Origin: an uncultured Chloroflexia bacterium
GTDB lineage: Bacteria > Chloroflexota > Dehalococcoidia > DSTF01 > JALHUB01
Direction: 5' to 3'
Length of the DNA stretch: 64,000 nucleotides
Assembly (NCBI GenBank): GCA_963703345.1
Contig: OY969814.1
Location: 512,001-576,000, forward strand
The position numbers and the translations under genes are program-made. Positions 30,638 to 54,589 of this stretch are shown piece after piece (the first letter of the stretch is position 1; every line of letters begins with the position of its first letter). The notes beneath the pieces were generated by a model. The model was given only the letters and a program-made list of their open reading frames with translations. It ran no database searches and was not told the DNA's origin.

Positions 30638-31543
30638 TTACGTCAACCATCGCCTCCTTGCGTACCAGCCTGCGGCACCGAGGAGCAGGATTCCTGCGAT
30701 GCCGCCGACGATGGCCGCGTGCATTGGAGTCGACGAGCTCCCTGAGGCGGCGCCAGCAAGCGGTCGCCCGTTCACATCTGGTGCGTCTGCCACACCGCCG
30801 ATGGCCGCGGGCGTTGGCGGTACGATCGTCTTGATCGCAGGCGCGCACACCTCCGCCGGCGAGAGAACCGCTACGTTCTGCTGCGGGCCGAACTGGGAAA
30901 TCACGTTAAGGACGGGGCCCGGCGGAGATCCGGCGATGCCGAAGCACTCAACATGGGGCACGTTCATATCCCCTACGCCGTTCTTGATCGACGGCAGGCA
31001 GAGATGCGTAGGCGGCCCAACTGACACACTTTGCTCCACGCCCAACTGCGTCTCCAGTGTCACCGGCGGAAATGCAGGCGATGTTCCGGTAACGCCATAG
31101 CACTCGTAATGCGGTGCCACCGGCAGTATCGTGGACGGTAGTTCCGGCGCTATCGCTATGTTGGCGGGCACGCACAGCTCGTTGGGAGCGCCAACCGGAA
31201 CGTTTGTCTGAATGCCGAACTGCGTTTGCAGATTTACGACCCGGTCGGGAAGAGGTTCCGCAATAGCAAAACATTCCACGTTCGGCGCGTTCAGGTCTCC
31301 CTCGCCGTTCTTCAGGGCGGCCAGACAAAGGCGCGTTGAAAGACCGACGGCCACTTCCTGCACGACGCCGAACTGATTCTGCAGCCTCACCGAGAAACCT
31401 GGCAGCGGCCGCGCGCCGATATCGTAGCACTTGTAATGGGGCACCGTGGGGAGCGGCGGCTGAGCCGTCGCCGGCCCCGGGACCCCCCAGGCGAGATACG
31501 TCGCCGCGAGAGCCGCCACCAGTGCTGAAGCTATCTTCTCCGT
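30638..31543 (-). CDS. Secreted Cys-repeat protein with C-terminal GG-sorting-like tail (probable ACG start; alternative ATG at 31591/31600)
   Basis: Signal peptide; four repeats like HYKCY...QFG...LC; tail IGGVADAPD-TM-WYARRR. Confidence 0.75.
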   Translation of the reverse strand, partial: TEKIASALVAALAATYLAWGVPGPATAQPPLPTVPHYKCYDIGARPLPGFSVRLQNQFGVVQEVAVGLSTRLCLAALKNGEGDLNAPNVECFAIAEPLPDRVVNLQTQFGIQTNVPVGAPNELCVPANIAIAPELPSTILPVAPHYECYGVTGTSPAFPPVTLETQLGVEQSVSVGPPTHLCLPSIKNGVGDMNVPHVECFGIAGSPPGPVLNVISQFGPQQNVAVLSPAEVCAPAIKTIVPPTPAAIGGVADAPDVNGRPLAGAASGSSSTPMHAAIVGGIAGILLLGAAGWYARRRWLT

Positions 31544-31680
31544 CTCCTTAGCCCCTCGTTTTCCGCTGCCCGACGGGCCTTCCCGGCGCATGCACTTCAC
31601 TGGAGCACGTCCGGCATGGCCCGACGGGCCAATCGCCGCCGTTCGTTCGTTCGTCTTGGGCGCGCGGTCCTCGACGGCGG
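31544..31680 (-). promoter_or_regulatory. Conserved structured 5' leader, copy A
   Basis: Strongly similar to 33169-33312; CCGCCGT/ACGGCGG and GCCCGnCGGGCC/GGCCCGTCGGGC stems. Confidence 0.65.
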
Positions 31681-31824
31681 GAGACGCTCATGGGGAAATA
31701 TCTCGTCAACCGAGAGATTTCGCTCCCGCGGGCACAAACACCCGGATCTCGACGCTTCCGTTGCCTGGTCAAGGCTTACAGGTAGGAGCCCGGCAGCTCT
31801 CTTGGCTGTGGCAACAGCTCCCGT

Positions 31825-33168
31825 TTACGCCAACCATCGCCTCCTTGCGTACCAGCCCGCGGCGCCGAGGAGGAGGATTCCGGCGATGGCGCCGCCGATG
31901 GCCGCGTACGTCGTGGTCAACGAGCCCCCTGAGGCGCCCGCAAGCGATCCCCCGTTCATATCCGGTGCCTCCGCGACGCCGCCGACAAGACGCGGAGTGC
32001 TTGTGGGCGTCAGCGTCCGTGTTGGCGTAGGCGTGGGCGTGTTCGTCGGCGTGGAAGTGGGGGTGGGCGTATCAGCCGGCAGCGACACATAGATCAGGTC
32101 CACGACCGACCACGGCACCCATCCGCCGTTGTCTTCGTCGTAGCACCGGATCGCCAGCGGGGCCGTGCTAGTGACGTCGCACAGGTTGAATGGGTCAGTA
32201 CCGTTAGAGGCCGCCGAATTGTTGTGGTCGGGCTTGCTTTGCCAGAGTGGCGGGAGGGCAGCATCACTATGAAGGCCGCTGGGCACAGGGTTTGGTGGTG
32301 GCGCGGAGGCATTGGTGGTGTGAGTCCAGGGATCGGCGACGGTGATGGTCCCATGCCCAGCAGCACCCCCGGCAGTGTTGTAGCCTACTCCTGCGACCAC
32401 GTGGGCGGTCTCGGGAGTGGGGGAAGTGGTTCTCTCCAGCCACAGCAGGACGTCCTTACCGCTGCTCAGTTGGGTCTGGTAGTCCAGGAAGGTGGGCGGG
32501 CCGGCGACCTGGTCAACACCGGGCACGTGGCCGGGCGCGACCGCTCCCGGGCCGCAGGGGTTGAGAGTGTTCTGGGTGGGTGCAGCCCTGTTGACTTTCA
32601 GCCCGAAGTGACCGGGCGCGCACTTGGCCGGGTCGATGATGTCGTGGACCGCCAGGCCGTTACCGTTGTTTACGTAGGTCTTGAGGCCGATGAGGTAGTC
32701 CCACTCCTCTACGCCCTGGCCGTAGCAGTAGTTGGTCTCTAAGCCGTCCTTGCTGCCGTTCTGGTTGGTATCCGTGAACGTGCTCTCGGCGATCTTCCTC
32801 AGTACCATGGGGTAACCTATGACCGGAGCCGGAAGGCCGTCAACTGCGTCGCGCGAATCGTACCAGCAGGCGCTTCCGGCGTTCTTGCTGTCGTCGTCGA
32901 TATTCTTCCAGGTCTCATCTGGGCCCAGCAGCCCCTGCTGTCCGCTGGCATTATCCGCAAACCACCAGAAGGAGTCGGCGGCCGCTCCCACCCAGCACCA
33001 GGCGTCCGAGTGCTGGCCGAGGTCGGGCATGGAAACCTTCCAGAAGCTCACCGGCGGCGCATCCGCCCGCGCCGTGCTGCCGGCAGTATGCAGCAGGGCG
33101 AGTGTGAGGACCGGGGCTATCGCCGCCAGAGCTGCTGCACCAACTAAAACTGAGAATAGCTTCTTCAT
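31825..33168 (-). CDS. Secreted papain/C39-like cysteine peptidase with PT linker and GG-sorting-like tail
   Basis: MKKLFSVL signal; Q...WCWVGAAA, AHVVAGVGY, VADPW (Cys-His-Asp); VGGVAEAPD-TM-WYARRR. Confidence 0.75.
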   Translation of the reverse strand: MKKLFSVLVGAAALAAIAPVLTLALLHTAGSTARADAPPVSFWKVSMPDLGQHSDAWCWVGAAADSFWWFADNASGQQGLLGPDETWKNIDDDSKNAGSACWYDSRDAVDGLPAPVIGYPMVLRKIAESTFTDTNQNGSKDGLETNYCYGQGVEEWDYLIGLKTYVNNGNGLAVHDIIDPAKCAPGHFGLKVNRAAPTQNTLNPCGPGAVAPGHVPGVDQVAGPPTFLDYQTQLSSGKDVLLWLERTTSPTPETAHVVAGVGYNTAGGAAGHGTITVADPWTHTTNASAPPPNPVPSGLHSDAALPPLWQSKPDHNNSAASNGTDPFNLCDVTSTAPLAIRCYDEDNGGWVPWSVVDLIYVSLPADTPTPTSTPTNTPTPTPTRTLTPTSTPRLVGGVAEAPDMNGGSLAGASGGSLTTTYAAIGGAIAGILLLGAAGWYARRRWLA

Positions 33169-33312
33169 CTCCTTAACCTCTCGCTTTCCGCTGCCCGACG
33201 GGCCCTCCCGGCGCACGCACGTCGCTGGAGTGCGTCCGGCACGGCCCGTCGGGCCAATCGCCGCCGTTCGTTCGGCTTGGATGCGTAAGCGGCATCCCGC
33301 CCCCGACGGCGG
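33169..33312 (-). promoter_or_regulatory. Conserved structured 5' leader, copy B
   Basis: Strongly similar to 31544-31680. Confidence 0.65.
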
Positions 33313-33513
33313 CCAACCCCGCTGTCTATTCCTGTCGGCGCCTCCTTTCGGCTAAGGGGTCCTTCCGATTGAATTCCAACGAGCCGACCTATAGAATATG
33401 AAGTGCTAGGGTCTGCGCCCGCATTCCTTAGCCCGGGCCCCGCTGGCCACCACTATGCGGGGCCTCTTCTTGCCGCGTAGGCGATGTTCTAGTGTTCGAC
33501 CTAGCGCACAGAC

Positions 33514-33542
33514 AAAAACCGGCCGGGGAGTCGCCGGTCGGC
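33514..33542 (-). terminator. Intrinsic terminator
   Basis: CCGACCGG-CGACTCC-CCGGCCGG-TTTTT. Confidence 0.65.
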
Positions 33543-33692
33543 CTTCATCAAAGGCTTGCGCCCTGGGCCTCTAGCCCTTAGCAATCGCAGACACGCTGCC
33601 GACATCTTGTCCGCCGTGCCTTTTGGCCGCGGTCCGCTTCGCGCCAGCCAGCCGGAAAGGGGAGCCTGCGGTCAGTCTGTACTCTTAGAGAC
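33514..33692 (-). ncRNA. Candidate rod-shaped ncRNA / attenuator leader
   Basis: TATAAT at 33702-33697 just upstream; four nested helices; small hairpin; terminator. Confidence 0.5.
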
Positions 33693-33836
33693 ACGCATTA
33701 TACACCGCCTGTCAAGGGGCTACCAGCTTCCCCCTTCGACCCTGTCGGTGACTCGGCGAACCAGAACCTCGCGAAAATTGCCTCCGATGCCTGATCTTTC
33801 ATGGGAGGCCGGAAAGGGGAATCTGCTGGCCGCTCC

Positions 33837-34787
33837 CTACTTGGGGAAGACCGTGCCGGCCATGGCAGCGGCTATTCTCGGCGCCAGCCAGCGCGCCACG
33901 ATGTAGGAGGCTTCCGGCGTGAAGTGGACGCCGTCGTAGCGCATTCGCACGCCGTCGATGTACAGGTCCTCGAACTTGCCGTTTGGACAGACGAAGCTCT
34001 TCAGGTCGATCAGCGACACTCTGTCCGGGTTCTCTTCGGCGAAGCGACGGTACAGGGCGTTGAGCTCGTCGTCGCGCCAGCGGGCGTCCGCTTCCGCCGC
34101 CTTGCCGCCGTCCGACAGCATCAACCAGAGGTCGGGCCGCGGGTACGGCCACGTCAGAAGGATCAACTTCCCGTTCGGCGGCACTACCTTGTCGAGCACC
34201 GATTGCAGGTGATCGAGCACGTAAGCCTTCCATTCGAGCGTGCCGGTCTTGAGAGTAACGCCGTTCACGATGTGGTCGGGATAGTCCCAACCGCCGAACA
34301 CCATGAGGACGACATCCGGCCGATAGTTGACGGCGTCCCATGCCCAACTGGTCCGCCATTGCTGGCACTGCTGCTCGTGCTCGACGGATAGGTGTCCCGT
34401 CATGTCGATCATCATGTCCGCCGGAAGGAAGCCGCAGAAGAGGCCTCCGCGATTCAAGATGGAGAACTTCCAGTCGCGCCCCACGTCCGTCAGGCCCGGG
34501 TCCAGCGCCAGCCCCAGCGAGTCGCCGACGACCATTATGCGGAGAGGCCCCCTCGCCGGGTCGGCTGCCAGCGGCGTGGCAGTCGGCTCCGCGGCTTTCG
34601 TCGCCGAGCGTTGAACCTCCGCGGCCGCGACCTGCCGTTTCGCCGAGGTGCGGGTGCAGGAAAGCGACGTTAGCAGAAGGCAAACAGCGAACACGGCGAC
34701 AAGCAGCAGCGGGGCGGCGCTTCCCGCCCTGACCGAGCGCACTGCCGCGATATGTCGGAGCAGCGCTCTCGATATTGAAGAACGCAT
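33837..34787 (-). CDS. Membrane-anchored SGNH hydrolase
   Basis: TM, VVGDSL, RYDGVHF. Confidence 0.85.
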   Translation of the reverse strand: MRSSISRALLRHIAAVRSVRAGSAAPLLLVAVFAVCLLLTSLSCTRTSAKRQVAAAEVQRSATKAAEPTATPLAADPARGPLRIMVVGDSLGLALDPGLTDVGRDWKFSILNRGGLFCGFLPADMMIDMTGHLSVEHEQQCQQWRTSWAWDAVNYRPDVVLMVFGGWDYPDHIVNGVTLKTGTLEWKAYVLDHLQSVLDKVVPPNGKLILLTWPYPRPDLWLMLSDGGKAAEADARWRDDELNALYRRFAEENPDRVSLIDLKSFVCPNGKFEDLYIDGVRMRYDGVHFTPEASYIVARWLAPRIAAAMAGTVFPK

Positions 34788-34929
34788 CGCGAAGCCTCCT
34801 GGAGGCGTCAACGGGAACAGTGACTGGCGAGGGCCGTTGGAACGATTATAGTTGAAGCTGCCTGCCTGTCAACTTCCGCCGACCAGTTGACGACTTTGCT
34901 AAGATGGAATTGAGGGGATGGTGTGAGGC

Positions 34930-35520
34930 ATGGCGATGTCGATGGAAGAGGAAGACGAGGCGAAAGCGGCACCGGGCGAGCTTGAGACGGCTACGTTCGC
35001 CGGCGGTTGCTTCTGGTGCACCGAGGCGATCTTCAAGCGGATTAGGGGCGTTCACTCGGTCACTTCAGGTTACGCCGGCGGCCACGTGGAGAACCCCTCG
35101 TACGGGCAGGTCTCCGGCGGCCGCACCGGCCATGCCGAAGCCGTGCAGGTCACGTTCGACCCGCAAGTCGTCTCCTACGACAGCCTGCTCGACGTCTTTT
35201 GGTCGACCCACGACCCGACGACTCTCGACAGGCAGGGCGCGGACGTCGGCCACCAGTACCGCTCGGCTATCTTCTATCACAATGAAGAGCAGCGGCGCGC
35301 CGCGGAAGCCTCGCGAGACAGATGGCAGGCGTCCGGCAAGTTCAACGACAAGATCGTCACCAGCATCGAGCCGTTCACGCGGTTCTACCCGGCCGAGGAC
35401 TATCACCAGGACTACTACGCCGCCAATCCGCACGCGTCTTACTGCTCGATAGTAATCGAACCCAAGATCCGGAAGCTGCTGCGCGACTTCCGCGATGAGG
35501 TGAAGGAGGAATGCCGGTGA
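34930..35520 (+). CDS. msrA: Methionine-S-sulfoxide reductase
   Basis: AGGCFWC, GHAE, QYRS, AEDYHQ. Confidence 0.96.
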   Translation: MAMSMEEEDEAKAAPGELETATFAGGCFWCTEAIFKRIRGVHSVTSGYAGGHVENPSYGQVSGGRTGHAEAVQVTFDPQVVSYDSLLDVFWSTHDPTTLDRQGADVGHQYRSAIFYHNEEQRRAAEASRDRWQASGKFNDKIVTSIEPFTRFYPAEDYHQDYYAANPHASYCSIVIEPKIRKLLRDFRDEVKEECR

Positions 35521-35927: not shown

Positions 35928-35930
35928 CGA

Positions 35931-38072
35931 TTAGCGCGCCTTCCGCCAGCGCCTCCGCGCGTACCAGCCGCCCGCCCCGAGAACGATCACTGCAGCCCCG
36001 GCTCCCGTCAGAGCGGCGTAAGGCGGCGACGTTGAGCCGGCCGTCTGCGGAGGCGGCGCGTTCATGTCCGGGGCCTCCGCGATGCCGCCCACGGCAGGAT
36101 CACTCGCAGACGCGGACCGATCCACAACATTGACCTTGACGTAGTCATTGTCCCAGGCGCCTTGGCAATGGTCAGGCCAGGGCGGAATGCCGCAAGCATT
36201 CACCGTGGCAAAGTTCGTGATTACACCGGGCGTGCTCAAAGTTACGTCCACCGATTTCTCGCACGTGTTGCCCGCGGAGATCAATGAGCAGTCGCCGTCC
36301 AAGTTGGGGAGAGCGTCATCAACGACGTTCGCGTACATTGGTCGGTCACCGCTGTTGGTGACAACCCAACGGAAAGTGACCGAATCTCCAACGTGTAAGG
36401 TGATAGGCCCCTGCTGGCCGTTGGCGGTCTCGTCAATGGACGCCTTCGGGGCGGATCTTACGCTTGTGGGCGTGAAGGTGGGAGTGGGTGTCGGTGTGCA
36501 CATGCCAGGAGGACACGGCGTCGCGGTTGGGGTTGGAGTCCCCGTGTCGGTAGGGGTGGGAGTGGGAGTCGGCGCCAGGAGCGTGAAACTGAGATCTCCT
36601 CTGCTCCCGGCAAAGCCTCCTACCTGAAAGTGATAAGTGGTGCCGGCGATAGCATCGAACGTGATGAGAGACGTCAACCCGGGCCCCGAATCATCGTCGC
36701 AGGCCAGGTTGGTCAAGTCCCCCAAATCGCTTCCCGTGTAGACTGCCAGGGCCGAGTCGTAGTCGCTTCCCGCGGTATCGACCTGCAGCATCACGCTTTG
36801 AGACGGCGTGTAACTGTACCACACGGTCGAGCCGATGCTGGCGCAGGGCTGGGGCTCGCTAGTCTGCGATGAGGCGCACATAGTAGATGTGTTAGCCGAA
36901 AACGGTTCTGCCCCTATCCCAGCCGCGTTGGCGAAATAGTCGTTCCCGGGCGGAATACAGGCCTGGAAGTCCAACACGTTCACCGGGCTGACGCTGTCGG
37001 TCGTCGTGCCATCACCTAGTTGGCCGTATCCGTTGAAACCCCAGCACTGGGCGCTGCCGTCGCTGAGCAGGGCGCATGTATGGTTCCAGCCGGTGGCGAT
37101 GGCAACTGCGTTGCTCAGGCCCGAGACCGGCACCGGACTGCCACCGTAGCCCGCGCCCCAGCATTTGGCCGTGCCGTCACTAAGCAACGCGCAACTGTGC
37201 TCCCAGCCGATAACGACAGCGATCACGTTGCTCAGGCCCGAGACCGCCACCGGGCTACTCTGACTAACATTTGTCCCGTCTCCTAATTGGCCGTTATTGT
37301 TGAAGCCCCAGCACTTGACGGTCGCGTCAGCGAGGAGGACACAAGTGTGGCCGAAGCTCCGACCGGGTGCGATGCCGGTGGCGTTGTTTAGACCCGAGAC
37401 TGTGACGGGGGCAGACTGGCTAATCAGTGTGCCGTCCCCAAGCTGACCGAACGAGTTGAAACCCCAGCACCTGACAGTGCCGTCATTGAGCACGGCGCAA
37501 GTATGATATTCTCCGCCGCCAATCGCTACGGCATTGCTGAGATTCGAGACGGCCACCGGGTTGGAGCGATTCATCGTGGTGCCGTCGCCTAGCTGACCGT
37601 GCGAGTTCTCGCCCCAACAGCGCATCGAGCCGTCGCCGAAGAGGGCGCAAGTGTGGTTGCCCGCCGCATTGATGGCGATGACGTTGTTCAAGCCCGAGAC
37701 CGTGACGGGTGTGTGGTGGTCCGCGGTCGTACCGTCTCCGAGCTGGCCATCTCCGTTCCAGCCCCAGCACTTGGCGGTGCCGTCGTTGAGGAGGGCGCAG
37801 GTGTGGCTGGTACCGGCGGAGATCGCGACGGCGTCGGTCAAACCCGAGACCGTGACGGGTGTGTGGTGCTCTGCGGTCGTACCGTCCCCAAGCTGGCCGT
37901 ATCCGTTCCAGCCCCAGCACTTGGCGGTACCGTCGCTGAGCAGAGCGCAGGTATGCTGCCCTCCACCAGAGACAGCGCCGAGGAGGGTTGCAGAGCCAGG
38001 CTTGGGCCGGCCCAGCCCCAGGATTGCGAGCACCGCCAGAAAGGATAGGACTATCGGAATCAAGCGTTTTAT
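35931..38072 (-). CDS. Secreted RCC1-repeat beta-propeller + PPC-like + Ig-like protein with GG-sorting-like tail (ATA start at 38072 or GTG at 38081)
   Basis: Seven HTCALL..G..KCWG.N..GQLGDG repeats; PT linker; VGGIAEAPD-TM-WYARRR. Confidence 0.88.
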   Translation of the reverse strand: MKRLIPIVLSFLAVLAILGLGRPKPGSATLLGAVSGGGQHTCALLSDGTAKCWGWNGYGQLGDGTTAEHHTPVTVSGLTDAVAISAGTSHTCALLNDGTAKCWGWNGDGQLGDGTTADHHTPVTVSGLNNVIAINAAGNHTCALFGDGSMRCWGENSHGQLGDGTTMNRSNPVAVSNLSNAVAIGGGEYHTCAVLNDGTVRCWGFNSFGQLGDGTLISQSAPVTVSGLNNATGIAPGRSFGHTCVLLADATVKCWGFNNNGQLGDGTNVSQSSPVAVSGLSNVIAVVIGWEHSCALLSDGTAKCWGAGYGGSPVPVSGLSNAVAIATGWNHTCALLSDGSAQCWGFNGYGQLGDGTTTDSVSPVNVLDFQACIPPGNDYFANAAGIGAEPFSANTSTMCASSQTSEPQPCASIGSTVWYSYTPSQSVMLQVDTAGSDYDSALAVYTGSDLGDLTNLACDDDSGPGLTSLITFDAIAGTTYHFQVGGFAGSRGDLSFTLLAPTPTPTPTDTGTPTPTATPCPPGMCTPTPTPTFTPTSVRSAPKASIDETANGQQGPITLHVGDSVTFRWVVTNSGDRPMYANVVDDALPNLDGDCSLISAGNTCEKSVDVTLSTPGVITNFATVNACGIPPWPDHCQGAWDNDYVKVNVVDRSASASDPAVGGIAEAPDMNAPPPQTAGSTSPPYAALTGAGAAVIVLGAGGWYARRRWRKAR

Positions 38073-38241
38073 GACGCTCACCTCCCAAGACTACTTGCGG
38101 CCCCACAACAATTTCAAGCCGGAACTAGCGGCACCTGCGGCGTGCATCAAGGAAGAGCGGCAATAACTTCCATTCGCTCAACCTCGCTGTTGGCGGGGGT
38201 GAAGCAGCGGAGCTATTCAGCAACGAGCCGTCGATGCGAGG

Positions 38242-42812: not shown

Positions 42813-42840
42813 TGCATTAGTGTGCGCGGAAGTCAAGGCG
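42813..42840 (+). repeat. 28-bp direct repeat, copy 2
   Basis: TGCATTAGTGTGCGCGGAAGTCAAGGCG. Confidence 0.8.
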
Positions 42841-42961
42841 ACGCCGAGGCTTGTCAGCCCATTCCCGTCATTTGCGATGGCAGAGGCGCGACGGTATACT
42901 CCAGCACAGCCGACCTGCCGATTCCGCAGAAGATCGGCAACACGAGTCCCAGATTGCTGTC

Positions 42962-45610
42962 ATGGATACTTCAAACTCCGAAGCACATGAGTGGCAAGAC
43001 CTCGACCTCGCCGCGGCGGCCCGACTCGAGACCTCGGCCGTACTCGAACAGTTGGGCAGCTCTGAGAACGGGCTCAGCGCGGCGGAGTCGACGACCCGCC
43101 TTGGGAAAGTAGGCCCTAACGCGGTCCGCAGCCACGGCGCGAGCGCTCTCGACGTACTGCTTCGCCAGGTCAAGAGCCCGTTGCTGATCCTGCTTGTCGC
43201 GGCCGCAGCCACGTCGCTGGTCGTTGGGCAGCGAACCGACTCCCTGATCATCTTTGCCATCATGGCCCTCAGTGTCGGGCTCGGGTTCTTCAATGAGTAC
43301 CGGGCCGCGCGCGCTGTAGAAGCGCTGCATTCTCGCATCCGTCACACCGCCGTCACGTCCCGCGACGGCAAAGCCGTCGAGGTCAATCTCACGGAACTGG
43401 TGCCTGGTGACATCGTGGGTCTCACTGTGGGCGAGGTGGTGCCGGCAGATATGCGACTCCTGGAAGCGAGCGACCTGGCCTGTGACGAGGCGATGCTGAC
43501 AGGCGAGGCGATGCCTGCGGAAAAGGGCATCGATCCCTCGCCTCCGTCCGAATCGCCCCTTGACCTGCCGTCGTGCGCATTCATGGGCACCGTAGTGCGT
43601 ACGGGCTCCGGCCGGGGTGTGGTGGTGCAGACGGGCCGGAACACAGCCTTCGGCCGCATCGCGGTGCGCCTCGGCGAGGCGCACGAGGAGACGGGCTTCC
43701 AGGTCGGGTTGCGCCACTTCTCTGTTCTGCTCGTGCAGGTCACAGCCGTTCTAACCATCTCCATCTTCGTGATCAATGCGGTGCTGCAGCGGCCGCTCCT
43801 GGAATCCGCGCTCTTCGCCCTGGCGATCGCGGTAGGGCTGACTCCCCAACTCTTGCCGGCGATCGTTACGGTCAGCCTCTCGACTGGGGCACGCCATCTG
43901 GCCCGCAAATCGGTCATCGTCAAGCGACTGGTCAGCATCGAGGATCTGGGTAACATCGAAGTCCTCTTCACCGACAAGACGGGCACGCTTACCGAGGGCG
44001 AGATCACCTTCTCAGCAGCGCTCGACATCGCGGGCAACCCGTCGAGCGATGTACTGCTAGACGGGCTGCTCTGCAACTCGGCGGTCCGCGACGCCGGCAG
44101 CGTCGTCGGGGGGAACCCCCTCGATCGCGCCCTCTGGGACGCCCCCGGGGCCGCGAGCAGCCCGGTATCGGGCTACGCGCGCCTCGCCGAGGCCCCATTC
44201 GACTATGACCGCCGGAGGATGTCGGTGCTCGTGCAAGACGGCAGCGGGCGCCGCATGATCATGACGAAGGGCGCGCCGGAGTCGGTGCTGGCGTGTTGCC
44301 ACGAGGTGGCGGCAGACGCTCGCACGCTGCTTGACGCCCAGTTCGAGGCCGGCAGCCGGATCATCGCTGTCGCGACGCGTGACGCAGACGGACTCTCGAC
44401 TCTCAGCCCCCAGGACGAGCATGATCTCGTCCTCGCCGGCTTCCTTTCGTTCGTCGACCGAGCAAAGGCCGGCGCAGGCGCGTCCATAGCGCGACTCAAC
44501 GCTCTGGGCATCACCGTTAAGATCGTCACCGGAGACAACGAGCGCGTAGCAAACAAGCTCTGCGCTGAGCTGGGGGTACCCGTGGCCGGCACGCTGACGG
44601 GCGCCGCGTTAGAAAAGCTCAACGATGACGAGCTCGTGGCGGCGTTACCCTCGACCTCGATCTTCGCCCGGGTGACGCCCGAACAGAAATCGCGGATAAT
44701 CCGCGCCCAACGCAAGCTCGGCGTCGACGTTGGCTTTCTCGGGGACGGCGTCAACGACGCAGTGGCCCTGCACGACGCCGACGTCGGCATCTCGGTGGAC
44801 TCTGGCACGGACGTGGCGAAGGATGCCGCCGACATTGTGCTGCTGGACAAGGACCTGGGCATCCTGGCCAACGGCGTCGTCGAGGGAAGGCGCGTATTCT
44901 CGAACACGATCAAGTACGTGCTAATGGGCACGTCATCCAACTTCGGCAACATGTTCAGCGCGGCCGGCGCCTCCCTCGTTCTGTCCTTCCTGCCGATGCT
45001 GCCGTTTCAGATACTCCTCAACAACCTCCTGTACGACATCAGTGAGATGACGATTCCTACGGACAATGTCGACGAGGAGCTGCTGCAGCGCCCGTCGTAT
45101 TGGGATACGGCTTTCATCCGCAAGTTCATGATGTTCTTCGGCCCGATTAGCTCCGCGTACGACTTCATCACCTTTGGCGTCATGCTGTGGGTCTTCAACG
45201 CTGGCGAAGTGCTGTTCCACTCCGCATGGTTCGTCGAGTCGCTCGCCACGCAGACGCTGGTGATCTTCATCATCCGCACCAGGCGCATTCCCTTCTTCCA
45301 TAGTCGTCCCAGCCTCCCTTTGCTGGCGACGACGCTTACCTGCGCCATCGTTGGCCTGGTGCTCCCTTTCTCACCGGTTGCGGGCGTGCTGGGGTTCACC
45401 GCGCTTCCGGCCGGCTTTCTGGGAATCCTGGTGCTGATGATCGTGACCTATCTGGGTCTGGTCGAGGCGGGGAAGTCCCGGTTCTTCCGACCTGTGCCGG
45501 GTAAGCAGCCTCTGGCCCGGCCGCGGGGGAAATGGGAGAGGCGGATTCACCGGGTTGCGGCGCGCTGGAGCCACCCGAAGCTTCCCGGGGCCAGGGCTAC
45601 CCCACGATAG
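42962..45610 (+). CDS. mgtA: Mg2+-translocating P-type ATPase (start approximate)
   Basis: AVGLTPQ, DKTGTLT, TGDN, GDGVND, SSNFGN, NNLLYD. Confidence 0.9.
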   Translation: MDTSNSEAHEWQDLDLAAAARLETSAVLEQLGSSENGLSAAESTTRLGKVGPNAVRSHGASALDVLLRQVKSPLLILLVAAAATSLVVGQRTDSLIIFAIMALSVGLGFFNEYRAARAVEALHSRIRHTAVTSRDGKAVEVNLTELVPGDIVGLTVGEVVPADMRLLEASDLACDEAMLTGEAMPAEKGIDPSPPSESPLDLPSCAFMGTVVRTGSGRGVVVQTGRNTAFGRIAVRLGEAHEETGFQVGLRHFSVLLVQVTAVLTISIFVINAVLQRPLLESALFALAIAVGLTPQLLPAIVTVSLSTGARHLARKSVIVKRLVSIEDLGNIEVLFTDKTGTLTEGEITFSAALDIAGNPSSDVLLDGLLCNSAVRDAGSVVGGNPLDRALWDAPGAASSPVSGYARLAEAPFDYDRRRMSVLVQDGSGRRMIMTKGAPESVLACCHEVAADARTLLDAQFEAGSRIIAVATRDADGLSTLSPQDEHDLVLAGFLSFVDRAKAGAGASIARLNALGITVKIVTGDNERVANKLCAELGVPVAGTLTGAALEKLNDDELVAALPSTSIFARVTPEQKSRIIRAQRKLGVDVGFLGDGVNDAVALHDADVGISVDSGTDVAKDAADIVLLDKDLGILANGVVEGRRVFSNTIKYVLMGTSSNFGNMFSAAGASLVLSFLPMLPFQILLNNLLYDISEMTIPTDNVDEELLQRPSYWDTAFIRKFMMFFGPISSAYDFITFGVMLWVFNAGEVLFHSAWFVESLATQTLVIFIIRTRRIPFFHSRPSLPLLATTLTCAIVGLVLPFSPVAGVLGFTALPAGFLGILVLMIVTYLGLVEAGKSRFFRPVPGKQPLARPRGKWERRIHRVAARWSHPKLPGARATPR

Positions 45611-47405: not shown

Positions 47406-47459
47406 TACGGGGCAGGGACGGATGCCCGCCAGGGGACTTGTCCAGCCGGCGCAGCCAGC

Positions 47460-48509: not shown

Positions 48510-48644
48510 CGGGGACCGGCGCCTGGCCCGTCGTCATGACGTACCTCCCCTCAACGCGCAATCCACAGCAGCCCTACCCTAGACGATCGACATCTTCCGT
48601 GCACGGATACGGGGTATGCGGCGCTACCAGTTCGGCAAACCGCA

Positions 48645-50021
48645 TTACGACGACTCCCTCCAGTGCACCTCGTACAGCCGCACGGGGCCCTCGAAGCCGC
48701 GCAGCGCGGCCTCGCCCCGGTCGGCGAAGAGGAACCCCTTGCCTGCCACCAACTGTCGCACGACGTCCGAGGCTAGTATCTCCTCGCCCTTCGCCTGCGC
48801 CGCGATGCGAGCCGCCATAATGACCGCCGTCCCGAACAGGTCCTCGTCCTCCGCTATCGGCTCGCCCGCGTTCAGCCCCATACGGACGCGTATCAGCGTC
48901 TCCGGGTGCTCATCATCGTGGGCGGCGAAGGCCCTCTGCATGGCAACGGCGCACTCCAGCGCCCGCGTCGCCGATGAGAACGATGCCATGAACCCGTCCC
49001 CCATCGCCTTCACCTCCGCGCCACCGTGGGTCCTGAGCGCATCGCGGACGATGCCGTTGTGGGTGCGCAGGAGCTCCTGGGCCTTGGCATCCCCCAGGCG
49101 CTGGGTAAGGGTTGTGGAGCCCTCTATGTCGGTGAAGAGGATGGTGAGAGGCCCCGACGGAGCGGCTACCGTCTCCGACCTCTCGCTCACGCCTACGAAC
49201 TCCGCGATAGCCTTGTACCCAGCCTCGATCATAGGGTCGCCGGGCAGAAGGGTGTGACTTCTGCCCTCCATGGGGAGGAAGCGGGCCCCGGGTATGCTGG
49301 TCGCCAGCTCGCGGCCGGCCTCAAAGGGTACGATGGTGTCGCCGCGACGGTGAGCTACCAGGGTGGGCGCTGTCACCTGCGGCAAAAGATGCCTCACGTC
49401 GATCTCCGCCAGGGCGGATATAAAGGCAGCGGCGTTCTCGGCCGAAGTGGAAACTCGCTGCAGTTCATTGAACTGCCGTATCGACTCCGCGTCCGCGTCC
49501 GGCATGAACAGGCTCGTAAACAACTGGCGGAACGCTGGCAAATCGCTGTCCCACCCCTGGCGGATCAGGGTCAACATGGCTTCAAGCCCTTGGCGGGCTT
49601 CCTGCGTGTCGAGCAGCCAAGCCTCGCGAGCCCAGGAGCCGTAGAGTATGAGGTGGCTGACCCGCTCTGGGTGGCGCACGGCATACGTGATGGCCGTCGC
49701 GCCCCCCTGAGAGATCCCTTGCAGGGCGAAGCGGTCAAGCCCCAGGGCATCAACCACCGCCTCCAGGTCGCGCAGCTGGGCTTCCAGGGAATAGTCGCTC
49801 ACTCGGCGGTCCGACAACCCCATGCCGCGGCCATCATAGCGGATGAGCCGAAAGAAACGGGAACCAGCGTCGATGGAATAGCGCCCCAGCGGGTTCTCCC
49901 ACTCATACTCCAAGTGGGTCATCCAGCCCTGGGCGCGAACCAGCGCAGGCCCCTGGCCCACCATGGCGTAGGCTATGCGCGTCCCATCCGAGCTGGTGCA
50001 GAAGCGGATATGCTGCTCCAT
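48645..50021 (-). CDS. Alpha/beta hydrolase + class III nucleotide cyclase fusion (LipJ-like)
   Basis: YDGRGMG, GISQGG; FTDIEGST, GDG, GTAVIMAARI. Confidence 0.9.
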   Translation of the reverse strand: MEQHIRFCTSSDGTRIAYAMVGQGPALVRAQGWMTHLEYEWENPLGRYSIDAGSRFFRLIRYDGRGMGLSDRRVSDYSLEAQLRDLEAVVDALGLDRFALQGISQGGATAITYAVRHPERVSHLILYGSWAREAWLLDTQEARQGLEAMLTLIRQGWDSDLPAFRQLFTSLFMPDADAESIRQFNELQRVSTSAENAAAFISALAEIDVRHLLPQVTAPTLVAHRRGDTIVPFEAGRELATSIPGARFLPMEGRSHTLLPGDPMIEAGYKAIAEFVGVSERSETVAAPSGPLTILFTDIEGSTTLTQRLGDAKAQELLRTHNGIVRDALRTHGGAEVKAMGDGFMASFSSATRALECAVAMQRAFAAHDDEHPETLIRVRMGLNAGEPIAEDEDLFGTAVIMAARIAAQAKGEEILASDVVRQLVAGKGFLFADRGEAALRGFEGPVRLYEVHWRESS

Positions 50022-50142
50022 GGCGACACCTTTCATGCTCGCTGCGTTCCCCAAGAGTGGCCTGGCGAACAACCGGAATCAGCGCTCTGCGCAGTATGCA
50101 ACCCGTTATTGCTGCGGCTCCTCAGCCCGGTCTCTTCCCACT

Positions 50143-53100
50143 CTACGGCCTAGCCAGCAGCGCTTCCGCCATCTCCACGTGCTTGGGCATGCCGATGCGG
50201 CGATACATGGCGATGGCCTCGGTGAGGAGCTCGCGGGCCTTCTCGCAGTCGCCGGGGGCGTCGCGGTCGATGAGCATGCGGGCGTACCAGCGCCGCACCT
50301 CCGGCTGCTGGATGACGTGGGGCAGCTCGTGGGCCTGGCGCAGGGCCGTCTGGTAGTGCTCCTCCGCCTTCTCCCAGTGTTCCCCGGCCGCCGCCGCCAT
50401 CCCCGCCACAGCATGAAGTAACGGAGAGTACCAAAGAACGACGGCTCCGGTATCGACGGCCTCCAGGACCAACGGGTAGAGCTTCGCGGCCTTCTCTCGT
50501 TCACCGAGGACGGTAAGCCCTTCGACCGCCGCGAAGAGCATCGCCCAGGCCCCTATCACGTTGGCCCGGCCGGGCCGCGGCAGCTTCTCCCGACTCTGCT
50601 CCAGCACCGCAAAGGCTGAATCTCTGTCCCCAACGTATGCCTCCCCCAGGAAGAGAGCCCCCCAGTCATAGCCGGCGAGGACCCCTGGCGGCTCCAGGTT
50701 GGCCGCCTCCTGGTATTGCGCGAGCGCCTGCCCCCACTCTCCCCTCCAGAAATGTACGTCGCCAAGGTAGGTATAGGCGTTGGATATCGCGTTGCTGCCG
50801 GTTCTGCGGCAGAGCTCCAGGTCCGCCTTCGCGTACTCCTCGAACCTTTTGATGTCGCCCGTGACCATGAACTGTCCGTTGACTATACCGCGCCTGACCG
50901 ATAGGAGGGCGCCCAGATAGCCCAGACGCGTGGCCAGCGGCTCCACCTCGCGGCCGATCTCGGCGGCTTCGGTGAGGCGGCCGAGATACAACAGCGCGTA
51001 CTGGGTGTTCCAAGAAATATCAGTCAAGCTGCCGAGGTCTCCGGTTTGCCGCAGGATATCCGCCGCCCGCAGGCCGGCGTTGACCGCGTCTAGCGGCTGC
51101 AAGTGCCAGCCGTGGTGGACGGTCTTGTACCCTAGGACCTGCCCCAGTAGGCGCTGATCGCCCAGCGTCTCAGCCATGGTCAGGGCCTCGTCAAGCAGCG
51201 AGGCGCCCGCGCTGTAATCGCCGGAGAGGCTGAGGTGCGACCCAGTGTGGGCGAGAAGGCGGCAGCGGTCGGCGCTTACCCGCTCGCCCAAGGCGGCCAG
51301 GCCACGCCGCCCGATCTCCAGAGATTCGGCCAGCTTGCCGCTGTAGGCCAATTGCAGGGCCAATGCGAAGGAGACGTGGCCCGCCGCCTCGGCGTTTCCC
51401 AACTCGTCGTAGGCGGCCAGCGCCTCGCGCCAATCGGCCATCGCCTCCTCCCAGCGGCCCAGGCTGCGCAGGGCCAGCCCCCGTTTGTAGAGCAGGTCGG
51501 CCCTCCCTCTCTGGTCATCGGCCGGCTGCAAGGAGAGAGCGTCGTCGTAGTGGCGCAGGGCATCCTCGAAGGCCGCTGCCTCCATGGCTCTCTTTCCCGC
51601 CACCGTCAGGTAGCGCGCCGTCTTCTCGGGGTCGGCGGCGGCCCCCGCCTGGTAGAAATGGTGGGCCAGGTCGGTGGCATGCTCCTCCAGGGTGCGGGCG
51701 TAGAGCCGCTCCATCGCCTCGGCTACCCGCAGGTGCCGCCGCTGCCGCCGGGGCAGTGAGAGGCTGCTGACCAGCGTCTGGCGGATAAGCTCGTGGGCGA
51801 AGCTGAAGCGGGCCTCAGGGCCGTCGGCGGTGGAGGTGATGAGGTGGGCCCGCTCCGCCTCGTCGATGGCGTCCAGAAGGGCGTCGGTGCCCACATCGCC
51901 CAGCGCATCCAGCAGCTCGAAGCTGAAGCTGCGGCCGATGACGGCGGCGACGGTCAGGACCCGCCGGCAGTCCTCGCAGACGCGCTCCAGCCGCCGCCCG
52001 ATGACCAGGCGGACCCCCTCCGGCACGTTCAGCTCGCTCACGCGGAGACCAGGGTGCCAGCGGCCTTGAGCGTCGAACAGCTTTCCCTCCTCTGCCAGAT
52101 GCTGGAACACCTCCTCGACGAAGAAGGGGTTGCCCTCCGTCTCACCATAGACGGCCTGCACCAGCGAGGCCGGCGGCTCCTGGCCGCTGAGGGCCTCCAG
52201 CATCGCCGCCACGCCCGCCTCAGGCAGCCGCCGCAGGGCGATGCGGTGGGCCAGGCGCTGGCGGAGGAGCTCCTCCAGGGCCCTGGCCAAGGGGTGGCCC
52301 ACGTCCAGCTCCACGTCTCGATAGGTGCCCAGGATCATCAGGGGCATCTGGCTAACCTGCTGGGCGATGTGCTGCATCAGCAGCAGGGTCGAGTCGTCGG
52401 CCCAGTGCAGATCGTCCAGCACCAAGAGTATGGGCTGCACGCGGGCCGCCCGCTCCAGGAACTCCTGAAAGCTGTTGAACAGATAGCGCCGCTCCTGCTC
52501 AGGCGGCAGCTCCAGAGGCGGTGGGATGTCGGGGAAGAGGCGGCGCAGCTCCGGCATCAACTTGGCTACCTCTGGCGCCGCATCGCCCAGGGCCTCCCGA
52601 AAAGCCTCTCCCGGAACGATGCGAGCCGTACCCTCCAGCGTCTCCACGAAGGGAATGTAGGGCGGTGCCCCCTCCATCTCGTAGCAGTGTCCGGTCAGGG
52701 CCAGCACCCCACGCTGGCGGGCCTCCAGCAGCAGTTCCTCAGCGAGACGTGTCTTGCCCACGCCGGGCTCGCCGCCGATCAAGACCAGGGCGCCCCGACC
52801 GCGGGTCACCTGGTCGAGGCAGCGCCGGAGCTCCGCCCGTTCCGCCTCCCGGCCTACGAAGGGTGTCCGCTCGGGAAGGCGTAGCCCTGCCGGTCCGATG
52901 GCTTCCTCCTCCCACGACACCCTATGAAGCCGCATAGGCCTGGGGAAGCCCTTGAGCTCCACCTCTCCACGGTCCTCCAGTTCCACCTTCGTCGCCTCGC
53001 CCAGGACACCTTTGGCGGTCTCCGAGATCAGAATCTCGCCGGCATCGGCGTGGTCGGCGATGCGGGCAGCCGCGTTCACCGTCGCCCCGAACAGGTCCGT

Positions 53101-53430
53101 CTCCTCCCGAATGACCTCGCCGGTGTTGAGCCCAATGCGCACACGTACGGCCCGCTCAGGGTCCTGCCGGTTGCGTCCTGCTATCGCCCTCTGGATATCG
53201 ACCGCGCAGGCGACAGCCCTTCGCGCGGAGGTGAAGGCGACCATTAGGCCATCGCCGGTGTGCTTGACCTCTTGCCCGCGATGCCGGGTGACCTGCTGGC
53301 GGACCAGCTCATCACAGGCGCGCAGCACCTCACGGGCGGCGTCGTCACCGAGCCGTGTCGCGAGGTCAGTGGAGCCTTCGCAATCCGTGAAGAGGACTGT
53401 GACTGTGCCTTCAGGGATCTCGTGTGCCAT
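50143..53430 (-). CDS. Class III cyclase + STAND-type ATPase + TPR-like protein
   Basis: FTDCEGST, VNAAARI, GEPGVGKT, DDLHWAD, GNPFFVEE. Confidence 0.9.
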   Translation of the reverse strand: MAHEIPEGTVTVLFTDCEGSTDLATRLGDDAAREVLRACDELVRQQVTRHRGQEVKHTGDGLMVAFTSARRAVACAVDIQRAIAGRNRQDPERAVRVRIGLNTGEVIREETDLFGATVNAAARIADHADAGEILISETAKGVLGEATKVELEDRGEVELKGFPRPMRLHRVSWEEEAIGPAGLRLPERTPFVGREAERAELRRCLDQVTRGRGALVLIGGEPGVGKTRLAEELLLEARQRGVLALTGHCYEMEGAPPYIPFVETLEGTARIVPGEAFREALGDAAPEVAKLMPELRRLFPDIPPPLELPPEQERRYLFNSFQEFLERAARVQPILLVLDDLHWADDSTLLLMQHIAQQVSQMPLMILGTYRDVELDVGHPLARALEELLRQRLAHRIALRRLPEAGVAAMLEALSGQEPPASLVQAVYGETEGNPFFVEEVFQHLAEEGKLFDAQGRWHPGLRVSELNVPEGVRLVIGRRLERVCEDCRRVLTVAAVIGRSFSFELLDALGDVGTDALLDAIDEAERAHLITSTADGPEARFSFAHELIRQTLVSSLSLPRRQRRHLRVAEAMERLYARTLEEHATDLAHHFYQAGAAADPEKTARYLTVAGKRAMEAAAFEDALRHYDDALSLQPADDQRGRADLLYKRGLALRSLGRWEEAMADWREALAAYDELGNAEAAGHVSFALALQLAYSGKLAESLEIGRRGLAALGERVSADRCRLLAHTGSHLSLSGDYSAGASLLDEALTMAETLGDQRLLGQVLGYKTVHHGWHLQPLDAVNAGLRAADILRQTGDLGSLTDISWNTQYALLYLGRLTEAAEIGREVEPLATRLGYLGALLSVRRGIVNGQFMVTGDIKRFEEYAKADLELCRRTGSNAISNAYTYLGDVHFWRGEWGQALAQYQEAANLEPPGVLAGYDWGALFLGEAYVGDRDSAFAVLEQSREKLPRPGRANVIGAWAMLFAAVEGLTVLGEREKAAKLYPLVLEAVDTGAVVLWYSPLLHAVAGMAAAAGEHWEKAEEHYQTALRQAHELPHVIQQPEVRRWYARMLIDRDAPGDCEKARELLTEAIAMYRRIGMPKHVEMAEALLARP

Positions 53431-53569
53431 CGTAGCCACCCGCAGCTCTGGATGACGCAATGTTACTGCGTTTGCTAACGATGTCAAGAGGATAGGTTCC
53501 TCTTCGCAGCGGAAGAGGATGTGACGATGCACCCTTAGTGTCACCGATGCGAGAGGGCAGCGCCCTCTC

Positions 53570-54589
53570 TTGACACCCACCGGGCCACAACCGGCGAATG
53601 CGGCGTTCCGAGGCGCGAACGGGAGGATCACGTTTCAGAGTGACCGCGATGGTGCGACGTACGAGATTCATAAGATGAACACTGATGGCAGTGGCCAAAC
53701 GCGGCTGACGAACAATACGGCAAACGATACTTCACCTTCTTGGTCGCCGGATGGCTTGCAGATCGTGTTCGATAGCACCCGGGACGGTGCCACTTACGAG
53801 ATCTACAAGATGAACTCCGACGGTACGGCACAGACACGTCTCACCAACAACGCCGCCAACGATCTGTAGCCAGCCTGGTCGCCGGACGGCTTGAAGATCG
53901 CGTTCGCCAGCGGGGATGGTGTCACGTACGATATCTACAAGATGAACGCCGACGGCAGCGGCCGGACGCGGCTGACCAACGATAGTGCTATCAACACAGC
54001 ACCGGACTGGTCGCCCGATGGCTTGAAGATCGCGTTCGGCAGCGACCGGCAGGGGAACCGCGACATCTATGTGATGAATGCTGACGGCAGCGGCGAGACG
54101 CGGCTGACCAACGATAGTGCTATCAACACAGCACCGGACTGGTCGCCCGATGGCTTGAAGATCGCGTTCGGCAGCGACCGGCAGGGGAACCGCGACATCT
54201 ATGTGATGAATGCTGACGGCAGCGGCGAGACGCGGCTGACCAACAGCGGCGCCGTCAATGCCAATCCTGCCTGGTCTCCCGACGGACATCGTATCGCCTT
54301 CTCCTCCAGCAACCAGGTCTACGTTATGAATGCTGATGGTACCGGCCAGACACGGCTGACCAACGACTCAGCAGACGATCTGTCCCCCGATTGGCAGCCG
54401 CTGTCGGTTGTGGGTGGCGTCGCGGAGCCTCCCGACGTAGCCAGCACCTCCGTTGAACAGGCTGGAGCGCCTGAGGGACGTTCTGGCCGGTCGGCTGGCG
54501 AATACGCGGCTCTGGCTGGCGGCGCGACCGGGCTGGTCATGGCGGCGGGCATCAGCGTTTGGCACGTCAGGAAGCGCTCAAGCCGATAA
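53570..54589 (+). pseudogene. TolB-like (PD40) beta-propeller with GG-sorting-like tail; in-frame TAG at 53867-53869 and no signal peptide
   Basis: PxWSPDG repeats continue in frame across NDL*PAWSPDG; tail VGGVAEPPD-TM-WHVRKR. Confidence 0.8.
53965..54244 (+). repeat. Perfect 132-bp tandem repeat (about 2.1 units)
   Basis: Units start at 53965, 54097, 54229; one 44-aa propeller blade each. Confidence 0.92.

Follow-up and report, generated by a model that had tools for sequence, protein, structure and literature searches.

Four Genes of the Window End in a Common Tail

We analysed a stretch of 64,000 nucleotides, hereafter called the window, from an uncultured Chloroflexia bacterium that is placed in the class Dehalococcoidia of the phylum Chloroflexota (assembly GCA_963703345.1). 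The window corresponds to G000:C1:512001-576000, where G000 denotes the source genome, a single contig of 2.28 Mb that is 95.85% complete. Four genes of the window end in the same type of C-terminal tail, which consists of a Gly-Gly motif, a spacer, a hydrophobic helix and a basic cluster, and which we refer to as the VGG tail. An initial annotation, made from the DNA letters alone, had interpreted it as an undescribed protein-sorting signal. Its four copies were located again without change, with motif starts at 30802 (-), 31986 (-), 36092 (-), and 54410 (+) and with the same ends of the open reading frames (ORFs).

ORF1 (30638-31600, minus strand) encodes a DUF7450-repeat protein with a signal-like N-terminus. 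It has 320 residues if counted from the first GTG, and its true start probably lies later. The tail of ORF1 (30638-30802, minus strand) carries IGGVADAP at 30779-30802, followed by a Gly/Ser spacer, the hydrophobic helix, and WYARRRW. ORF2 (31825-33216, minus strand) combines a signal-like N-terminus with an unclassified Cys/His-containing body and a Pro/Thr stalk; its tail (31825-31986, minus strand) has VGGVAEAP at 31963-31986 ahead of spacer, helix, and WYARRRW. The body of ORF2 had been described as a C39-like peptidase, for which Pfam, NCBIfam, and PDB sequence searches gave no support; by eye, no more than a CW...HVVAGVGY pattern can be made out. ORF3 (35931-38081, minus strand, 716 residues) consists of a signal-like N-terminus, an RCC1 propeller, more extracellular-type domains, and a tail (35931-36092, minus strand) with VGGIAEAP at 36069-36092, spacer, helix, and WYARRRW. 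ORF4 (53570-54589, plus strand) is a PD40 propeller gene with an in-frame TAG at 53867-53869, so that the ORF past this stop spans 53870-54589. In its tail (54410-54589, plus strand), VGGVAEPP at 54410-54433 is followed by spacer, helix, and WHVRKR. Domain scans agreed with the earlier labels of RCC1 for ORF3 and PD40 for ORF4. A signal peptide was looked for in frame upstream of ORF4 and was not found. Because of this and the in-frame TAG, ORF4 is probably a pseudogene. One DNA sequencing run carries the TAG with zero differences over 53838-53994, and this run may be the source sample itself. One RNA sequencing run contained pieces from relatives only.

ORF1 and ORF2 have a common leader (~90-105 bp, ~90% identity) and near-identical tails, which flank unrelated bodies. 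The 5' leader of ORF2 lies at 33185-33274 (minus strand) and is ~90% identical to that of ORF1 at 31560-31649. Both genes resemble cassettes with exchanged cargo, and other VGG genes also have upstream peptide-frame motifs in common. In addition, MarR-like genes adjoin VGG genes in the window (30148-30624), at G000:C1:936236-936616 and, by coordinates, in congeners. Co-regulation of the two is possible.

The VGG Tail Recurs on Unrelated Proteins of the Source Genome

The six frames of the source genome contain 17 matches to the strict pattern [VI]GG[VIL]A[ED].P, each of them 48-60 residues before a stop codon. By chance, a mean of 0.1 matches is expected from shuffled gene products, and 3.9% of positions fall in this zone. 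A profile built from the 17 strict tails recovered four more, one with VGGIGEPP and three with VGGxVxLPPAAIAAES, a second subtype, giving a total of 21. In the alignment of these 21 tails the GG is invariant, as is, in this lineage, the Pro six residues past the first Gly, an invariance that is partly circular since the tails were chosen by motif. The element [YH]AA[IL], which the initial annotation had counted as part of the signal, is present in all four window tails but is not general, the invariant core being GG plus, in this lineage, the Pro.

The 21 tail proteins form 11 sequence clusters. Their bodies include RCC1, NHL/YVTN, Kelch, and PD40 propellers, an M28 peptidase, an esterase, TSP3, cohesin and vWA domains, and unknowns. 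A hydropathy script, as distinct from a signal-peptide predictor, gave a hydrophobic signal-like N-terminus for 20/21 of them, ORF4 being the exception. The view that the tail marks the C-termini of exported-type proteins thus holds for the position before the stop codon in 17/17 cases and for the N-terminus in all but ORF4. In this genome, many unrelated proteins thus combine a signal-like N-terminus with a tripartite arrangement of motif, transmembrane helix and basic cluster at the extreme C-terminus. Several substrates have Pro/Thr stalks ahead of VGG, and one is a cohesin protein. Distances from GG to the helix range from 17 to 29 residues, compared with 8-13 residues in 12/14 xPx[TS]G tails of this genome (4 and 21 in the other two); the initial annotation had given about 15-25 residues and called this unusually far. 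Among the database matches to the tail, xGG lies 45-61 residues from the C-terminus in 95/98, and where a source names homologs of the tail proteins, the label is Dehalococcoidia. Taken together, the sequence features identify the VGG tail as a tripartite C-terminal sorting-type signal that is real and uncatalogued.

Catalogued Sorting Signals and Their Enzymes Do Not Account for the Tail

We compared NCBIfam (June 2026) with the 21 tails and with 13 tails of a short-spacer variant described below, and Pfam with 57 tails. No NCBIfam or Pfam model aligns the VGG motif, and matches cover the helix and basic end only. The initial annotation could assign the tail to no named family, and none of the C-terminal signal models in either collection covers the motif. 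The cut-off of LPXTG_anchor is passed by 3/21 tails, through the helix and basic end only (profile positions 7-11 onwards), and that of PEP_CTERM is just passed by 1/21 (17.1 vs 16 bits) via an incidental VPVPAE near the helix. Against the GVDTG model NF058571 the tails score at most 22.8 bits, under the cut-off of 29. The VGG motif contains no Thr-Gly, the hallmark of LPXTG and class F signals (TIGR01167, NF058571). None of the 21 tails matches the GlyGly-CTERM model; their GG stands 17-29 residues off the helix, and the source genome has no match to the rhomboid model PF01694. All 14 control genomes do have a rhomboid match. Neither PF09721 nor TIGR04178, one of which would be expected alongside PEP-CTERM or PGF-CTERM, matches the source genome, in which an exosortase/archaeosortase search gave nothing even at E <= 1. 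The tails lack the conserved Cys of MYXO-CTERM. A single CPBP gene in the source genome scores 19-32 bits vs cut-offs of 75-130 for MrtJ, MrtS, and Mrt_core and sits, as read by eye, among aromatic amino-acid biosynthesis-type genes.

Sortases are present in the source genome. Four of its five sortase matches lie in tandem at G000:C1:682458-692426 (L026), beside genes ending in PPxTG or xPxTG. The four that were tested are closest to class F, yet under the class F cut-off. About 14 xPx[TS]G tails were found in this genome, and together with the sortases they fit a second, separate sorting class. VGG tails and sortases differ in their distribution. Of 201 Dehalococcoidia genomes, 102 have a sortase and ~18 have VGG tails, so that most of the 102 lack the tail. 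G636, G635, and G644 have sortases without VGG tails, and G031, G066, G103, and G116 have VGG tails without a sortase match. When three genes on each side of the 21 tail genes of the source genome were inspected by eye, no recurring neighbour was seen. We found no paper on the VGG tail or its candidate enzyme, in a search that left subscription articles and supplements, where a description is possible, largely outside. The main text of Haft's 2023 preprint (bioRxiv 10.1101/2023.06.07.544157) does not contain 'VGG', 'Dehalococc', 'Chlorofl', or 'Bathyarch'.

Two other kinds of C-terminal end were seen next to VGG genes. A different tail, PVGG...GC...D followed by a short helix and an Arg cluster, is present on the ORFs G000:C1:1047020-1052188 and 1807341-1808069 (L059), each directly upstream of a VGG gene; these tails resemble Cys-type sorting signals, and the first has no NCBIfam match. 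The genes at G000:C1:1665862-1667907, 1737504-1739210, and 1739325-1740887 encode paralogous signal-bearing proteins that end in a coiled-coil-like segment, a helix, and RRRAGGKR, and two of the three lie directly upstream of small Cys-rich VGG proteins.

A Membrane-Tethered Protein with a Predicted Caspase Fold Is the Candidate Partner

The initial annotation had seen no processing enzyme in the window, and both copies of our candidate enzyme in the source genome indeed map outside it. One paralog (G000:C1:938348-939244) lies directly behind a VGG gene, which encodes a vWA protein (G000:C1:936761-938347), the other at 1832491-1833396. The expectation of a dedicated enzyme was borne out insofar as this candidate co-occurs with the tail, adjoins it and is fused to it, but it is none of the types that had been listed (sortase, exosortase, rhomboid, or CPBP protease). 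It comprises ~290 residues, with a basic N-terminus followed by a single hydrophobic helix, a short stalk, and a catalytic-type domain. Among the 243 of 270 homologs that have a start motif (the 27 others were left unscored), 222 have the N-terminal hydrophobic helix, and the median stalk is 16 residues long. An R-x-H motif and a Cys are invariant in 148 aligned homologs.

The family comprises 622 clusters at E <= 1e-30 and 1063 at 1e-10. It has no Pfam or NCBIfam name and falls in unnamed Atlas clusters. The enzymes of the source genome gave no match near the cut-off to CHAT (PF12770), C25 (PF01364), or C13. Weak CHAT matches were found for 10/148 homologs (best E 4e-4; scores shown, 13-15 bits vs the Pfam cut-off of 24) and weak C25 matches for 9/148 (best E 9e-3). 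An Atlas lead pointed to C25 at 0.88, and PDB sequence searches with the enzyme profiles gave noise only.

An AlphaFold2 model of the enzyme reached a predicted local distance difference test (pLDDT) score of 87. Its best structural matches were SAVED-CHAT (Z 15.2; root-mean-square deviation (rmsd) 3.0 over 177 aligned residues), separase (14.1), and gingipain RgpB (12.9), followed by legumain (10.7) and PIG-K (9.3; rmsd 3.6, 171 aligned), with DdvA and caspases also matched. The first 35 of 35 VIA-align rows, with Z from 15.2 to 9.3, are caspase-fold chains, some of them by title. Foldseek agreed, with CHAT-type matches at E 5e-5 to 1e-3. The enzyme is thus predicted to have a clan CD caspase/CHAT-like fold. 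In the model, H122 follows strand 116-119 and C214 follows strand 207-211, the strand-end positions of His and Cys in clan CD. If confirmed as the partner of the tail, this family, which has had no annotation so far, gains a candidate function.

Distant homologs of the enzyme domain were also seen in another Chloroflexota family (f76; L193-L202), where they form part of secreted-type multi-domain proteins, one to five per genome. They have ETHS and NGC motifs and Pro/Thr stalks, no VGG neighbour was seen beside them, and they were not counted as members.

Tail and Enzyme Genes Are Neighbours and Are Fused

Physical linkage was assessed in two sets of loci. The tail-led set comprised 29 loci from other genomes, fetched by tail matches alone; a full enzyme gene lies directly behind the tail gene in six of them, and an enzyme fragment in one more. 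The enzyme-led set comprised 79 loci fetched by the enzyme alone from the best 80 of 97 matches (59 bacterial and 20 archaeal by record title). Its tallies were curated by eye from script output, and three of its loci repeat ones already sampled. In 31/79 of these loci (21 bacterial, including two VGW variants, and 10 archaeal), the enzyme gene is immediately preceded by a tail gene in the same orientation. One more upstream tail across an N gap brings this to 32/79, and eight further loci have a tail within 4 kb. As a background, a tail gene is the immediate upstream neighbour of 8 of 1964 genes of the source genome (0.4%), and 121 of 1966 (6%) lie within 4 kb of one. The 48 neighbouring tail-protein bodies fall into 35 unrelated clusters, and the arrangement is therefore not one inherited operon.

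A search for longer homologs, which scored 7995 candidates, yielded five proteins. In each, a body is followed by a VGG-type motif and a helix, then by a basic loop and the enzyme domain; a second helix is clear in 4/5. Single fusions could be read-through artefacts, but three of these are related at 74-79% identity, come from separate assemblies and differ by 21-26%. In a fold model of the C-terminal 311 residues of a fusion, a two-helix hairpin is combined with the enzyme domain, an arrangement that would bring the enzyme back to the motif's side of the membrane; in the same model the GG segment has a pLDDT < 50, with only three alignment rows truly covering it. In another ORF, of 864 residues (L207:2444-5038), in G605 from another Chloroflexota class, a body and a long Thr/Pro linker lead to VGGMSM, and no clear helix separates this motif from the enzyme domain. 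Judging from this layout, the protein is possibly self-cleaving.

Three further loci may be mentioned here. At G070:C7:1011-8000 (L245), the two sorting systems share an island: two PxTG genes and two sortase genes stand in the same row, and on the same strand, as a VGG gene and the gene for the caspase-fold enzyme. Sortases are also found ~5 kb or less from the enzyme in G185:C41. At G021:C30:5723-5845 (L068), a stop-interrupted tail remnant lies directly upstream of the enzyme.

Tail and Enzyme Share a Patchy Distribution

The enzyme was detected in 17/201 Dehalococcoidia genomes, and 17/17 have the tail, which was found by search model A1 in ten, by model A7 in four, and through the adjacent gene in three. 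Among the 184 enzyme-negative genomes, true tails were seen in G089. Fourteen others gave a single weak A1 match each, 12/14 starting after GG, and two gave weak A7 matches without the motif. In 300 further-sampled genomes of the phylum, strong enzyme matches were confined to the class, bar one fusion-like ORF.

In the order, the enzyme is present in 41/61 genomes (40/60 without G652). All 41 have tail matches, 40 of them at a best E <= 1e-6. Of the 20 enzyme-negative genomes, 14 have no tail match and six do; five of these six were inspected (G630, with one weak match, was left out), and true VGG tails were found only in G089 and G627. The tails of G627 include a frameshifted VGG tail and a remnant (L216, L219). 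Thus, tail and candidate enzyme co-occur in the order, and do so more loosely in Bathyarchaeia. In family f2 the enzyme is present in 0/15 genomes. G171 has neither enzyme nor tail, while its congener G199 has both. In the congener G636 (5 contigs, 92% complete), the second locus is intact, with flanking genes 33 bp apart and the enzyme gone; in six other congeners the enzyme is present between those flanking genes. G636 has no VGG tail, has kept five sortases and has one PPNTG tail. In this tail (G636:C2:396830-396964; L214), the PPNTG motif stands ahead of a helix that ends in AAWYARRRWLR, an end of the VGG-tail type, perhaps the result of a swap between sorting systems.

Variant Tails Occur in Bathyarchaeia

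The signal had been regarded as lineage-specific, which did not hold: a short-spacer tail, VGGxxxPxxK-LLAPW, is found in other Dehalococcoidia and also in Bathyarchaeia. In 151 genomes of the Bathyarchaeia class, the enzyme was found in 63, tails in 28, and both in 21. Among those with two or more tails, 16/18 have the enzyme, vs 63/151 overall.

We also placed the enzymes in a quick tree, from which three duplicate loci and matches of <170 residues had been left out. In the clade of the first paralog of the source genome (clade A), 6/6 loci with a nearby tail (five genomes) have VGGxVxLPP, a subtype unseen beside other clades. Twelve further adjacent pairs comprised seven duplicates and five new ones; all five new pairs join a non-clade-A enzyme with a non-VxLPP tail, and no new clade A case was obtained. 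This pairing suggests that paralogs are specific for tail subtypes, and common descent could also explain it. The clade of the second paralog has no adjacent tail genes, so that neighbours do not indicate which paralog serves the VGG[IV]A[ED]xP tails.

A Proposed Mechanism

We consider it quite probable, from these genomic associations, that the candidate enzyme cuts the VGG tail. Our preferred reading goes further: the enzyme would cut the tail at Gly-Gly and re-anchor the protein on a surface anchor other than peptidoglycan, to which we assign a probability of roughly 0.58. Tail proteins would be exported by Sec through their N-terminal signal, a signal-like segment being present in 20/21. 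The C-terminal helix and Arg cluster would then act as a membrane stop that leaves VGG on the outer side, at a distance of 17-29 residues. The helix and stalk of the enzyme would hold the active site of its predicted fold above the membrane on that side as well. According to Haft, a hydrophilic spacer like that of LPXTG signals is missing from signals that intramembrane proteases cut (bioRxiv 10.1101/2023.06.07.544157). By this rule, the 17-29-residue spacer argues for an active site that stands off the membrane, as a single helix and a median 16-residue stalk would give.

The Cys would attack at or just past GG to form a thioacyl intermediate, as the invariant GG and the invariant His and Cys suggest. 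We place the cut at GG because GG is the only element kept across all subtypes. In the last and weakest step, an amine-bearing lipid or glycan might resolve the intermediate, by analogy with PIG-K and PorU. PorU (C25) has been proposed as a sortase-like transpeptidase (PMC4560394), and PIG-K (C13) is described as cutting at a small residue, 8-12 spacer residues before a hydrophobic tail, with its dyad ~22 Å above the membrane (PMC9098846).

No Mur ligase match was obtained in G031, G066, G103, and G116, which have enzyme and tails and no sortase; G000 and G175 do have Mur ligase matches, and G000 also has penicillin-binding protein matches. Peptidoglycan is unlikely as a general acceptor because of these four genomes and because archaea carry the pair as well. 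The Pro/Thr stalks ahead of VGG and the cohesin substrate suggest retention rather than release. More tentatively, the system might represent a fifth class of prokaryotic C-terminal sorting, in which a single-subunit caspase-fold transamidase reads VGG at a set height and adds a lipid anchor, in a manner like glycosylphosphatidylinositol (GPI) anchoring, in Dehalococcoidia and Bathyarchaeia, with subtype-specialised paralogs and self-processing fusions. We regard this wider proposal as possible rather than probable.

Several points weigh against re-anchoring by the candidate enzyme. Export, topology, cleavage, cut site, and anchor are all deduced. G089 (96% complete, ~120 contigs) gave no enzyme match, yet it carries three intact tails. 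In Bathyarchaeia, 42/63 enzyme-positive genomes have no tail at E <= 1e-5, seven tail-positive genomes have no enzyme, two of them with eight and three tails, and a VGG-like tail was detected by script in the 1.5 kb flanks of 3/15 top archaeal enzyme loci, with a fourth by coordinates. In the enzyme-led set, 39/79 loci have no tail in reach, including the whole clade of the second paralog of the source genome. Of the A7-positive Dehalococcoidia, 3/4 contributed to the search models, as did 7/20 loci of one inspected set, in which the upstream tail is present in 8/13 of the others. Moreover, the genomes are related, and their tallies are not independent events. As to the enzyme itself, the invariant His and Cys are predicted to form the catalytic dyad from their invariance and their placement after strands, not from a residue-level superposition. 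The residue after the His is Ser, Ala, Ile, Val, or Thr, not the Gly of the His-Gly pair of legumain (H148-G149) and PIG-K (H164-G165), positions that are given in PMC9098846.

Alternative Explanations

The same protease could cut at GG and merely hydrolyse, so that proteins are shed into the medium or matured and gain no new anchor. Co-occurrence, adjacency, and fusions fit such hydrolysis equally well; the closest folds (CHAT, separase, gingipain) are hydrolases, with PIG-K lower at Z 9.3; and, though without a systematic search, no gene for anchor synthesis stood out as a repeated neighbour of the enzyme. The 864-residue ORF, in which body, VGG, and enzyme follow each other with no clear helix, looks like a case of self-release. 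On the other side, known tripartite signals as a rule end in surface anchoring (bioRxiv 10.1101/2023.06.07.544157, for the signals treated there), the Pro/Thr stalks and the cohesin scaffold suggest tethered display, and a signal peptide alone would already be enough to release a protein. We regard hydrolysis without re-anchoring as unlikely. Still less probable is that the tail is an uncleaved membrane anchor, in which VGG serves docking, glycosylation, or quality control and the partner binds or degrades the protein without sorting it. In its favour, the helix and WYARRRWLR end found behind PPNTG in G636 shows that the anchor module can move by recombination, and ORF1 and ORF2 have the leader as well as the tail in common. 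Against a mere anchor, GG is fixed while spacers have diverged across two domains of life and codons have varied, the His and Cys of the partner are invariant, and tail and partner are both absent in G636 and in family f2.

Processing of the VGG tail by one of the five class F-like sortases of the source genome is very improbable and largely refuted by the genome profile, with sortases in 102/201 genomes vs tails in ~18, sortases without tails in G636, G635, and G644, and tails without a sortase match in G031, G066, G103, and G116. It would draw on the presence of these sortases (four tested, closest to class F and under its cut-off), on the LPXTG-like spacer layout, on the row of two sortase genes, VGG gene, and caspase-fold gene on one strand in G070, and on the 3/21 tails that pass the LPXTG_anchor cut-off. 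Those three matches, however, span the helix and basic end only, the motif is without Thr-Gly, and the sortase cluster adjoins xPxTG genes, whose ~14 tails form a class apart. An intramembrane protease (a rhombosortase, an exosortase/archaeosortase, or a myxosortase-type CPBP protein) that cuts the tail in the manner of GlyGly-CTERM is hardly to be expected either. The motif is Gly-Gly, rhombosortase is stated to cut after GG (bioRxiv 10.1101/2023.06.07.544157), and one CPBP gene is present. Against this, the single-contig, 95.85% complete source genome has no rhomboid or exosortase match, nor any exosortase/archaeosortase match at E <= 1, the CPBP gene stands far under the myxosortase cut-offs among aromatic amino-acid biosynthesis-type genes, and the tail has no Cys and a 17-29-residue spacer that keeps GG well off the helix.

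Comparison with Known Systems

By our comparison, the VGG system would work like LPXTG/sortase or GPI/PIG-K, yet it belongs to none of the named systems. With the tripartite signals (LPXTG, TIGR01167; PEP-CTERM, TIGR02595; PGF-CTERM; GlyGly-CTERM; MYXO-CTERM, TIGR03901) it has in common the succession of motif, helix, and basic cluster on unrelated exported proteins, ~20 substrates per one or two enzyme genes, and a patchy joint presence of tail and enzyme; with LPXTG it also shares a hydrophilic spacer. It differs in that VGG[IV]AExP, VGGxVxLPP, and VGGxxxPxxK are in no model, in its longer spacer, and in a single-pass partner with a predicted caspase fold, in place of a sortase or a multi-pass intramembrane protease. 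Every tripartite prokaryotic signal in Haft's Introduction is served by one or the other of these two (bioRxiv 10.1101/2023.06.07.544157).

PIG-K/Gpi8 (clan CD, C13) has a caspase/legumain fold with a His/Cys dyad above the membrane, as is predicted for the VGG enzyme, and matches the enzyme model at Z 9.3; in its substrates, as described, a hydrophilic spacer separates a small residue from a hydrophobic C-terminal tail (PMC9098846). It works in a five-subunit complex of the endoplasmic reticulum on a signal without sequence consensus, in contrast to one small protein and a strict GG here. CHAT, separase, and gingipain score higher, so that a special kinship with PIG-K does not follow, and transamidation by the VGG enzyme would be an analogy. 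PorU (PG0026), the sortase of type IX secretion (clan CD, C25), is a Cys protease of the gingipain fold with an extra conserved Arg; it cleaves off a C-terminal signal and, as proposed, joins the protein to a surface anchor (PMC4560394). The VGG enzyme has a conserved Arg too. The target of PorU, however, is a C-terminal secretion domain at the surface of Bacteroidota, whereas the VGG enzyme has an N-terminal helix and a signal with a membrane helix. The CHAT peptidases (PF12770: SAVED-CHAT, Craspase Csx29, DdvA) and separase are the best structural matches, at Z 14-15. Unlike the CHAT peptidases, the VGG enzyme has no TPR, SAVED, or sensor domain; it is stand-alone, membrane-tethered, and linked to surface proteins, not to defence loci.

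If the proposed reading is true, C-terminal sorting would gain a new enzyme class in this single-pass caspase-fold partner, and PorU and PIG-K would be joined by a third case in which the caspase fold serves to replace a protein C-terminus. The display of hydrolases, propellers, and scaffolds by widespread lineages of sediment and soil, some of them archaeal or without detectable peptidoglycan genes, would then have an explanation. A GG-specific ligase of this kind, a small enzyme acting on a short tag, could also serve as a protein-engineering tool.

Other Genes of the Window

Three further regions of the window were labelled by eye. We take 42821-45610 to encode a P-type ATPase and 50143-53634 an adenylate-cyclase-like/ATPase multi-domain protein, and 58921-63634 is presumably a NiFe hydrogenase/heterodisulfide-reductase-like cluster.

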